From Escherichia coli (GTDB taxonomy: Bacteria; Pseudomonadota; Gammaproteobacteria; Enterobacterales; Enterobacteriaceae): a DNA stretch of 64,000 nucleotides. Position numbers: made by a program. Location: assembly GCF_003334305.1 (NCBI RefSeq), contig NZ_QOWS01000019.1. The stretch is one strand, 5' to 3'. Of this stretch, positions 45,001 through 48,000 are shown piece after piece. The stretch's first letter is position 1, and each line of letters opens with the position of its first letter.

Positions 45001-48000
45001 AATAAAGTTAATTTCGAAACACTAAAATTCATAATGCAAACAGGGACGCACCGCTAGCAGCGCCCCTAGCGGTATCCTATAAAAAAACACACCGCGCCGC
45101 TAGCAGCCCCCCCTAATATAAAATAATGTTTTTTATAAAAATAGTCAGTACCACCCCTACAAAACGGTGTCGGCGCGTTGTTGTAGCCGCGCCGACACCG
45201 CTTTTTTAAATATCATAAAGAGAGTAAGAGAAACTAATTTTTCATAACACTCTATTTATAAAGAAAAATCAGCAAAAACTTGTTTTTGCGTGGGGTGTGG
45301 TGCTTTTGGTGGTGAGAACCACCAACCTGTTGAGCCTTTTTGTGGAGTGAGTTAAATTATTTACGGATAAAGTCACCAGAGGTGGAAAAATGAAAAAATG
45401 GATGTTAGCCATCTGCCTGATGTTTATAAATGAGATCTGTCTGGCCACTGATTGCTTTGATCTTGCAGGCAGGGATTACAAAATAGATCCTGATTTACTG
45501 AGAGCAATATCATGGCAAGAATCCCGTTACCGGGTTAATGCCATCGGTATTAATCCGGTAACGGGATATGGCAGCGGACTGATGCAGGTAGATTCCCAGC
45601 ATTTTAACGAACTGGCCCGCTACGGAATTAAGCCGGAACATATGACAACAGATCCCTGCATGAACATTTATACCGGTGCTTATTATCTGGCAATAGCATT
45701 TAAAAAATGGGGCGTCACCTGGGAGGCCGTTGGTGCATACAATGCCGGATTCAGGAAAACCGAACGCCAGAACCAGAGGCGTCTTGCCTACGCATCAGAT
45801 GTTTACCGGATTTATACCGGGATAAAAAGCAGTAAAGGTATCCGGGTTCCGACCACGAAGAAATCACTTTCCCAAATGAACAGTGTGCAGAACAATTAAT
45901 ATTGTATACATTGTCAAATACCGGTTATGCCGCGACAGCGGCATGGAAGGCCACACACAAAAATATCATATGAGTGATAATGCTGACTGGCCGAAGCCCC
46001 GCAAAGCGGGAACCCATATTATATATATCCGGTAACTGCGTAGCCTCCTGCCAGACCATTTTTCGCGGGCACAATATTTACAGACTACCGAAAAGCCAGT
46101 TGATGAAATTGAGGCATATCAGACGACATAGCAATGCCGAAGGATGACAATATAAGTAAAGCCCCGAAAATTTTTCGGGGCTTTACCTATATTATCACGA
46201 CTTCCACTCCCTGAACTGTTCGGCAATCATCCATAATGCTTTGTTGATTCTTATATCACCATCAATACCTGTAATGGCTCTTGTCCTGGTATTTTTCCCG
46301 GAGGCACTTCGCCCCGATAATCCACCTTTTATCATATTCTCCTGAACCCGCTGCCAGGTTGTCCAGAGATCGTTCTGTTTATCCTCCCGACGACGGGGAG
46401 TAATTATCTGTTCAGGCGTCACCGGCGTTTTATTTTCATCTTCATACCTGACCATCAGTGCAGCTCTGCCAAATAAATGTTGCTCGTCACTGTTAAGATG
46501 AATTTCTTTCATCGCCTCCATATTATCAGTGACCTTATCAAAGACACCGAGCACTTCATACGCTCCCTCGATAACCTGCCCGACAATATCACCTTTATGT
46601 GGAACGCGGATTTCGCCAAAATTATTTCCGCACACCAGGCCATTTGTGCAGACAAAACGAAAAATTCCGGGGATCATCTGATAACTGGATGAACCATCAT
46701 GTGAATTAAGCAGGATAATTTCAGGAACTTCCTGCCCGTTAATATGCCCTTCCCTGCGAAGACGTAACATATGTTTACTGTATTCGCGACGTCCCAAATC
46801 ACGAACCCGACTCTGACAGGCAAAGAATGGCTGGAAACCTTCATCACGTAACTTATTGATGATATTGATTGTTGGAATATACGTATAACGTTCACTCCGG
46901 GACTCATGTTTATCACCGGAAAACACCGAAGGCACAAACTGCATTAATTCATCATCCGTTAAAGGACGTTCACGGCGGATGGAATTATACCGACCAAAAC
47001 GGGAAGCTAATCGCATAACAGCTACTCCTTTATGAAAGAATAAATTTAATAAAAAATTTTTCCGCTTAATATCATCCCTCCCGATCTCCATTAACAAGAT
47101 TGCAACAATCAGGAGGGATATTCATCACATCCGGTCAGCAGATAGCCCGGATATCGAGGCCGGTACGCTTAATCTGACGCAGGAACTGTTTGAAGTGATC
47201 GGCTTCCGCAATGTTGATATGGCGGAACTGCGTATCCACACCCCGGCTGAGCGCATAGCTATAGCTGAAGGCCATCTTTTCCGGGTGGCTTTTGCGATAT
47301 TTTTTCAGCTCAGTCAGGCTGCTGAATTCCAGGACGTCCCACTCTTCCCCGGTGTATTTTTTCTTCCCGGCAACAAGAAGCGTGTACGACGCGATGTTAA
47401 CGTGGATATTTCGGGTACTCATCCTGCTTTCTCCTCTCTCTGGTTTTCAGCCCCCATCATCTGTTGAGTTTCGGGAGCCGCGGTTTTGACGTTTTGCGGG
47501 GACCTGCCGTTTGTTCCCTCCGGTATTCACCATCACCTGTTTGAGAACCTTCGCCGCAAGGGGCATCACTGCCACGGCCTGACGCACCTGTCCTGGGCAG
47601 AACGCAAAATTTTTTACCGGGTTTTGGGTAAAAAATTTTGTGGGCTGTTCATTTACCCTGGACAGTCAGTGCGGCAGGTTGTGGCTGTATCAGCTCCCGG
47701 CGACAGGGGCTTAAACAGGTGAATGGCACCGGACACAACAACGGGCAGGAACCCGCCGCAACGACGTGAAGCGCGGTTTGCGAAACGGCGTTGCCCCTTA
47801 CATCCCGGCGGCCTTTTGCCGGGATGCCGGGAGCGCAGGCCACGGCGCGACAGAGGCGGCGCGACCGGAACGGTCGCTGCAAGCCCGGGGTTTCGCGTCA
47901 GGGATGGAAGCCCGCCAGGGCGGAGACAGCTCCGCTGGCTCCGTTCACGACAGCCCGCCCCGCCAGGGGGACGCCCGGAAAAGGCATAAGCAGGAGAACA

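Follow-up and report, generated by a model that had tools for sequence, protein, structure and literature searches.

An orthologue of the F plasmid ssiE sequence beside oriT of an F-like Escherichia coli plasmid is a probable primase-dependent priming signal on the transferred strand

The DNA analysed here is a 64-kb stretch (hereafter the window) of Escherichia coli contig NZ_QOWS01000019.1. It belongs to an F-like conjugative plasmid, and the stretches that we queried are 100% identical to E. coli plasmid CP012113.1. Some 600 nt from the nick site (nic) of its oriT, the window carries an element whose sequence identifies it as the orthologue of ssiE, one of the single-strand initiation sequences (ssi) of the F plasmid. 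Judging from sequence comparisons alone, we think it likely that this element is a primase-dependent priming signal, that is, a plasmid G site of the phage G4 type, active on the transferred strand (T-strand). What we infer beyond this is a requirement for primase only, the exact start of the primer, and use of the site during conjugation in vivo. An earlier note on this DNA had described 45922-46060 as the second copy of a stem-loop element and as a possible primer site for conversion of the transferred strand to duplex. The features concerned are as follows.

45894-46082, + strand: ssiE orthologue, the full extent of homology to D90180.1 (91.05% identity)
45272-45328, + strand: oriT core, exact match to the hairpin oligonucleotide plus the 3'oriT30-mer (PMC3074121)
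45390-45899, + strand: orf169, a lytic transglycosylase (SLT) gene
46195-47097, - strand: DUF932 gene, convergent with orf169, with the leading-region genes beyond it

Samuel et al., 2024 (PMC11541004) print the F plasmid ssiE sequence, under accession D90180.1, in their Supplementary file 4. In a BLAST comparison, 45894-46082 of the + strand aligned with it over 190/190 nt in plus/plus orientation (91.05% identity, E 8.7e-73), and because this is a full-length match to a published ssiE, the element is one that has already been described and is not new. The two sequences occupy the same slot between orf169 and the DUF932 gene (orf273), on the same strand and at the same distance from nic, and differ by about 9% substitutions. 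In the complete F sequence (NC_002483) ssiE is found at 65260-65555, likewise between DUF932 and transglycosylase genes. The same arrangement recurs in F and five further F-like contigs, where the element always lies between the SLT and DUF932 genes on the SLT sense strand, and its position on the nicked strand is fixed relative to nic in all F-like plasmids examined. Altogether, 4542 plasmid records in PLSDB contain ssiE-like sequence. Nomura et al. (1991, Gene 108:15) reportedly described eleven ssi of F 'for priming of DNA replication', ssiE among them, and the ssi activity of F ssiE is said to have been seen in that study as complementary-strand synthesis of an origin-defective single-stranded phage.

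To place the element relative to the nick, we used the F oriT oligonucleotides of Dostal et al. (PMC3074121), a hairpin oligonucleotide ending ...GCGTGGGGTGT and a 3'oriT30-mer beginning GGTGCTTTTGG... Joined together, these match 45272-45328 of the + strand with zero mismatches, and this exact match places nic between 45298 and 45299. Because the nick sequence is on the + strand, the + strand is the transferred strand, and higher coordinates enter the recipient first. The ssiE homology spans 596-784 nt from nic on this nicked strand, and the shorter stretch singled out previously corresponds to T-strand nucleotides 624-762. The earlier claims that the element sits on the transferred strand about 600 bp from the oriT nick, and between the lytic transglycosylase gene and the convergent leading-region gene, are both borne out by these positions.

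The probable class of the element is suggested by its relationship to a second site in the window. When 45850-46200 was compared with the window by BLAST, a block of 26 nt was matched at 10184-10209, likewise oriented (96% identity, E 2.9e-6). A profile built from 21 family members and searched with nhmmer found exactly two matches across the 64 kb, each on the + strand, at 10184-10281 (E 3.9e-28) and 45925-46024 (E 3.8e-24), although these E values are inflated because both window copies were in the training alignment. Support that is independent of profile training comes from the 26-nt BLAST match and from the shared block order: the two window copies carry the same series of four short blocks (A to D) without forming a continuous repeat, and blocks A-C and a fourth block are also common to 12 other copies of the type found beside oriR. 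On this evidence the second copy that had been proposed is indeed present. The copy at 10 kb (copy A) has the following surroundings.

10184-10281, + strand: copy A, a G-site-type element (nhmmer), ~400 bp past the IncFII oriR
~10.7-12.5 kb: IncFII replicon
~10862-10700, downstream of repA1: oriR, with the DnaA box ttatccaca and an AT-rich stretch
11036-11905, - strand: repA1
11978-12069: CopA RNA

The order repA-oriR-copy A fits synthesis away from oriR, and the + strand is there the leading-strand template. We take the position of copy A to be that at which Masai and Arai reportedly mapped the R1 G site in 1989, where primase alone is said to start the leading strand, and blocks A, B and C were reportedly recognised by Tanaka et al. 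in 1994 as conserved among plasmid G sites. Copy A also has local similarity to the origin of phage G4, in that its CGGCGTAAGCCG matches 11/12 bases of CGGCGAAAGCCG in G4 origin hairpin I. Most oriR-type copies read CGGCGTAAGCCGG-TA-CTG where the G4 origin (oric) reads CGGCGAAAGCCGCCGTCCC-TA-CTG, and the primer is annotated in the GenBank G4 record as ending at that CTG. Copy A itself departs from this pattern, reading TACGGACTG at 10268-10277 where most oriR-type copies read TACTGATTG; the change removes one CTG and creates another 4 nt further along, as though a primase start had to be kept. In two other copies there is no CTG at that place. A third mini-hairpin motif, GCGTTAGC, occurs at 10401-10408 (+), on the strand of copy A and about 125 nt past it; this is the same octamer as in the St-1/alpha3 primase site and may be there by chance.

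Within the ssiE copy the parts of the element, all on the + strand, are arranged as follows.

45926-45951: block A, 96% identical to 10184-10209
45927-45944: hairpin I, ATGCCGC-GACA-GCGGCAT, 7 bp, within block A
45932-45939: mini-hairpin motif GCGACAGC, within block A
45949-45992: stem-loop II, with GGCCA (45949-53) paired with TGGCC (45988-92)
45967-45973: block B, CATATGA
45983-45989: CTGACTG, containing two 5'-CTG-3' trinucleotides, candidate primase starts on the template strand
45991-45999: block C, CCGAAGCCC, conserved in both types and overlapping hairpin III
45998-46010: hairpin III, CCCGC-AAA-GCGGG, 5 bp
46036-46059: 3' part, with CTG (46036-46038), GCGTAGC (46038-46044) and block D (46047-46059)
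46047-46059: block D, CCTGCCAGACCAT (CCTGC.A..CCAT), with a CTG at 46048-46050

Block A has the consensus TATGCCGCG(A/T)CAGCGGCATGGAAGGC. Across the 21 family members the stem of hairpin I is almost invariant and its loop variable, the loop motif being GCGACAGC in the window copy and GCAAAAGC in F ssiE. In the predicted DNA folds, stem II joins blocks A and C and block B lies inside stem-loop II. The stem II helix is 100% paired in the 21 sequences, as GGCCA/TGGCC in the oriT type and GGCGG/CCGCC in the oriR type, such that two pairs have changed on both sides in a compensating manner; since this amounts essentially to a single evolutionary split, we regard the covariation as supportive rather than strong. 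Hairpin III has also undergone a compensating change, its stem being CCCGC/GCGGG in the window copy and in a distant relative described below (L075), and CCGGC/GCCGG in oriR-type copies. In the window copy the 5-bp stem is intact and has a GCAAAGC loop; in F the motif is GCGAAGC and the stem is broken. The stem is disrupted in both D90180.1 and NC_002483 with the GCGAAGC motif retained in both, and these two F sequences (the latter our L093, 2740-3075) differ by two single-base indels, one in hairpin I and one in hairpin III. The CTGACTG preceding block C is present in 8/8 oriT-type copies, including a divergent one from Salmonella, and does not occur at that place in oriR-type copies. Further downstream, the CTG at 46036-46038 sits 2 nt after the ACCGGT that closes a stem in the fold, and block D, together with its CTG, is kept in copies of both types.

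The designation 'stem-loop element' is apt insofar as three short hairpins are present, but their stems are small and the fold is unremarkable. The energy of the DNA fold of 45922-46060 is about 2 standard deviations below that of shuffled sequences (z -1.96 and -2.02 for the two strands), so that the signal lies in sequence conservation and not in exceptional stability. With z at only about -2 on both strands, folding energy was dropped as a main argument.

With the R1/R100 G site, ssiE has in common the order of blocks A-D, both hairpin I and hairpin III, and a stem II that covaries; in this plasmid the two types also lie on one strand. They differ in that the ssiE sequence between blocks B and C is unrelated, that ssiE has no TA-CTG after hairpin III and instead has the conserved CTGACTG before block C, and that ssiE adjoins oriT rather than a replication origin.

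CTG is the start signal for primase, as the annotation of G4 illustrates. Those of ssiE begin at 45983, 45987, 46036 and 46048 and adjoin stems other than hairpin III. A second feature of primase sites is the mini-hairpin motif, which is found at those of G4, St-1 and alpha3 and binds SSB poorly (Hirao and colleagues; PMC13037366). Among the 21 family members, motifs of the form GCGNNAGC/GCGNAGC number 29 on the given strand and 0 on the reverse complement. Because the motif is so frequent (45 and 49 observed in the whole window, against about 35 expected), finding it proves nothing in itself, and it is informative only through its placement in loops and its strand bias. The + strand is indicated as the active strand by this bias, by the fact that the two copies face the same way, by how copy A is oriented to repA/oriR and by the orientation of the D90180 sequence; ssiD from the same study was deposited in template orientation. 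The likeness to the G4 oric consists of compact single-stranded DNA hairpins with the GCGNNAGC motif, CTG trinucleotides on the template strand and the same proposed mechanism, which involves SSB and primase. There is no overall similarity, however, and CGGCG.AAGCCG...TACTG is shared with the oriR-type copies only. Moreover, a blastn search with 45915-46045 gave zero matches in 50,697 phage records, so that ssiE is not tied directly by sequence to G4-like phages or phage-plasmids.

A different kind of priming signal would be a phiX174-type primosome assembly site, at which PriA recognises hairpins and loads DnaB/DnaG. Such sites are likewise rich in hairpins and have no strong consensus, and several of the eleven ssi of Nomura et al. 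are said to be of this type. However, the homologue of ssiE beside oriR is placed like a primase-only G site and has the G4-like hairpin-TA-CTG of such a site, and ssiE carries mini-hairpin motifs like those of phage primase sites. We therefore consider a primosome assembly site improbable. The orthology of the stretch to ssiE, a single-strand initiation sequence of F, and its homology to the oriR-side site, which has the same orientation and hence is also on the transferred strand, lend support to the original suggestion that the stretch is a site of priming.

The published classification of ssiE is different again. In PMC11541004 and its preprint, ssiD and ssiE are classed as 'Frpo/ssi' promoters and ssiE served as a BLAST query. 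An Frpo-type element is a single-stranded DNA promoter in which RNA polymerase reads folded -35 and -10 boxes, and the resulting transcript acts as mRNA or as primer; Frpo transcripts can prime conversion in vivo. The class-1 elements of this kind (Frpo/ssiD) resemble ssiE in being F leading-region ssi that lie on the transferred strand and are able to prime DNA synthesis. They differ in possessing a stem of ~100 bp, -35/-10 boxes and a downstream gene, none of which ssiE has, and in their need for RNA polymerase. The window contains three true copies, which were readily found by the same search and lie on the transferred strand upstream of - strand leading-region genes.

47451-47800, + strand: Frpo/ssiD copy, 88% identical to D90178.1
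52843-53191, + strand: Frpo/ssiD copy, 97% identical to D90178.1
56116-56449, + strand: Frpo/ssiD copy, 80% identical to D90178.1

By contrast, the best word that ssiE shares with ssiD or with ColIb-P9 Frpo1 is 9-11 nt (BLAST, E>0.6). Its hairpins do not exceed 7 bp and its fold has a z of about -2, a promoter scan found no -35/-10-like site within 45894-46082, and any RNA copied from the T-strand here would enter orf169 in the antisense direction and have no gene to express. Given the unrelated sequence and the lack of a long stem, promoter boxes and a downstream gene, we rejected the Frpo reading of ssiE, which appears very improbable. Samuel et al. counted single-strand promoters with ssiE among five 'known Frpo/ssi' queries (PMC11541004). 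Because ssiE is unlike Frpo, the ssiE matches in that survey are probably priming sites that were counted as promoters.

It is scarcely credible that the element acts as RNA, whether as the 3' untranslated region of the orf169 mRNA, as a small RNA or as a short protein-coding open reading frame (ORF). A near-perfect inverted repeat of ~26 bp at 46145-46197, between the convergent orf169 and DUF932 genes, probably serves as a bidirectional terminator. The strong fold z-scores (-4.5 to -5.8) of 45900-46200 are explained by this repeat, and the weak Rfam matches in the wider region around ssiE are all due to it. Lying between the orf169 stop codon and this terminator, ssiE is probably transcribed; short ORFs overlap it, and a hypothetical protein is annotated there in one record. 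Against such a role, a search of 45894-46082 against Rfam gave no match at either of two thresholds, the looser being E<=1, the same blocks adjoin oriR in an unrelated setting, the copy A frame through blocks A-C meets a stop at block B in the ssiE copy, and indels occur inside ssiE. The coding reading was rejected because the reading frame is not conserved between copies.

A pattern scan (GCGGCATGGAAGG N20-50 CCGAAGCC) in which each species was represented by a single genome returned 91 stretches, 16 of which are true relatives by BLAST or profile, 15 of them close to known IncF sequences and one (L075) 76% identical. The others were rejected as chance matches in GC-rich genomes, and little diversity was gained. 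L075 is a contig from a metagenome-assembled genome (Proteobacteria, JAFAFL010000064.1) that is otherwise unrelated; its G-site-like element (7650-7747) begins 5 nt past a VirD4/TraG-type coupling-protein gene and has the register of the oriR type but the hairpin III stem of the oriT type. In two contigs a pair of oriR-type copies is present (L035 at 3623-3720 and 5827-5923; L087 at 411-504 and 1726-1823), spaced 1.3-2.2 kb apart, with one L087 copy truncated after hairpin III. These pairs suggest that the element has been moved or duplicated by recombination among replicons. The Salmonella plasmid NZ_CP030198 (L001 2464-2543; pSLT-type, 341 records) has a degenerate ssiE in which a 12-nt deletion removes block B and blocks A and C are altered, while CTGACTG is kept; the mini-hairpin motif was not found in this copy. 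The arrangement and orientation in pSLT-type plasmids are otherwise those of the F-like contigs, with the adjacent DUF932 gene split into three frames.

As for the rest of the window, the tra genes are on the - strand and reach up to traM (44592-44975), and an Rfam scan placed matches to the traJ 5' untranslated region and FinP at ~44.4 kb. The sok antitoxin RNA, above its gathering score, adjoins a short hok-like ORF, and four antisense RNA families first described on plasmid pHK01 also score above the Rfam gathering score.

48480-48652, - strand: sok
13056-13238, + strand: AS-pc02
55868-55969, + strand: AS-pc01
17211-17287, + strand: AS-traI
25849-25934, + strand: AS-traG

If ssiE is a primase-dependent signal used in conjugation, its action might be as follows. 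The + strand would enter the recipient 5' end first, and nt ~600-780 would be inside within about 1 s at the measured rate of ~790 nt/s. SSB would coat the strand but leave the compact hairpins I-III free, with stem II holding blocks A and C together. Host DnaG primase would bind this SSB-free structure and lay down a short RNA primer from a CTG, the candidate starts being CTGACTG (45983-45989), CTG (46036-38) and the CTG of block D (46048-50). DNA polymerase III would then extend the primer toward the T-strand 5' end, that is, back to the nick, so that the right half of oriT and orf169 become double-stranded. After TraI has rejoined the strand, the growing end could cross nic into the last-entered traM/tra side. 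With extension directed toward the nick, only the first ~0.7 kb would be copied before recircularisation, and because the leading-region genes lie on the other side, ssiE cannot start their conversion. The earlier suggestion that a primer would be most useful at this position is thus correct only in part, as it applies to the first ~0.7 kb of the strand and not to the leading-region genes.

Recent single-cell work on recipients is relevant here. Complementary-strand synthesis of F was found to be discontinuous and to persist in rifampicin; Frpo transcripts contributed some early conversion events, which were sensitive to the drug (Fraikin et al., bioRxiv 2026). Since conversion persists in rifampicin, priming without RNA polymerase must exist. 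The same authors state that other initiation factors are unexplored, and ssiE was outside their tests (Fraikin et al., bioRxiv 2026).

Several points weigh against the interpretation of ssiE as a primase-dependent signal that serves conjugation. The TA-CTG that directly follows hairpin III in G4 and most oriR-type copies is not found in the oriT-type copies, F has a disrupted hairpin III, and the pSLT type has lost block B. The fold is only about 2 standard deviations from shuffled sequence, and the covariation reflects essentially one evolutionary split. The assignment of ssiE to the G4 type, like the names of blocks A-C, depends on what Nomura (1991) and Tanaka (1994) reportedly described. 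The direction of synthesis limits any benefit during entry to ~0.7 kb. Lastly, F derivatives without leading-region DNA reportedly still transfer in the laboratory.

Some of these points bear on the further alternative that ssiE is a real priming signal that is irrelevant to conjugation, and which instead acts in vegetative replication or restart, or is a surviving duplicate of the oriR G site that has travelled with the plasmid backbone. A vegetative role belongs to the oriR-side copy, priming of conversion in recipients recurs along the whole plasmid with no special sites known for it, pSLT-type plasmids retain only a degenerate ssiE, and little is gained before recircularisation. On the other hand, ssiE keeps one position and one strand with respect to nic in every F-like plasmid examined, its blocks are conserved even though the flanks and the sequence between blocks have diverged from the oriR copy, and the F replicons (RepFIA/FIB) are distant from it. 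On balance, we consider irrelevance to conjugation unlikely, and continue to favour a primase-dependent signal active on the transferred strand.

A bolder proposal, which we advance tentatively and judge rather doubtful, is that the two G-site-type elements on the transferred strand form a dedicated primase-only priming system for plasmid establishment, in which the oriT-proximal copy makes the region from nic to orf169 double-stranded within seconds. If this were true, the TraI-bound 5' end would be protected and orf169 would become transcribable; its sense strand is the T-strand, and the gene is therefore unreadable from single-stranded DNA. After recircularisation, ssiE would supply a 3' end for copying the last-entered oriT/traM, which would solve the 'end problem' of discontinuous conversion. 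The ssiE 'promoters' of recent surveys would, moreover, be priming sites.

How recipients first prime an incoming conjugative strand has yet to be settled. Our analysis suggests that ssiE is better annotated as an element of the ssiE/G-site type than as an Frpo promoter, and that its orientation favours copying toward the nick and not into the leading-region genes. As a conserved element, ssiE is a candidate for RNA-polymerase-independent priming in thousands of F-like resistance and virulence plasmids.

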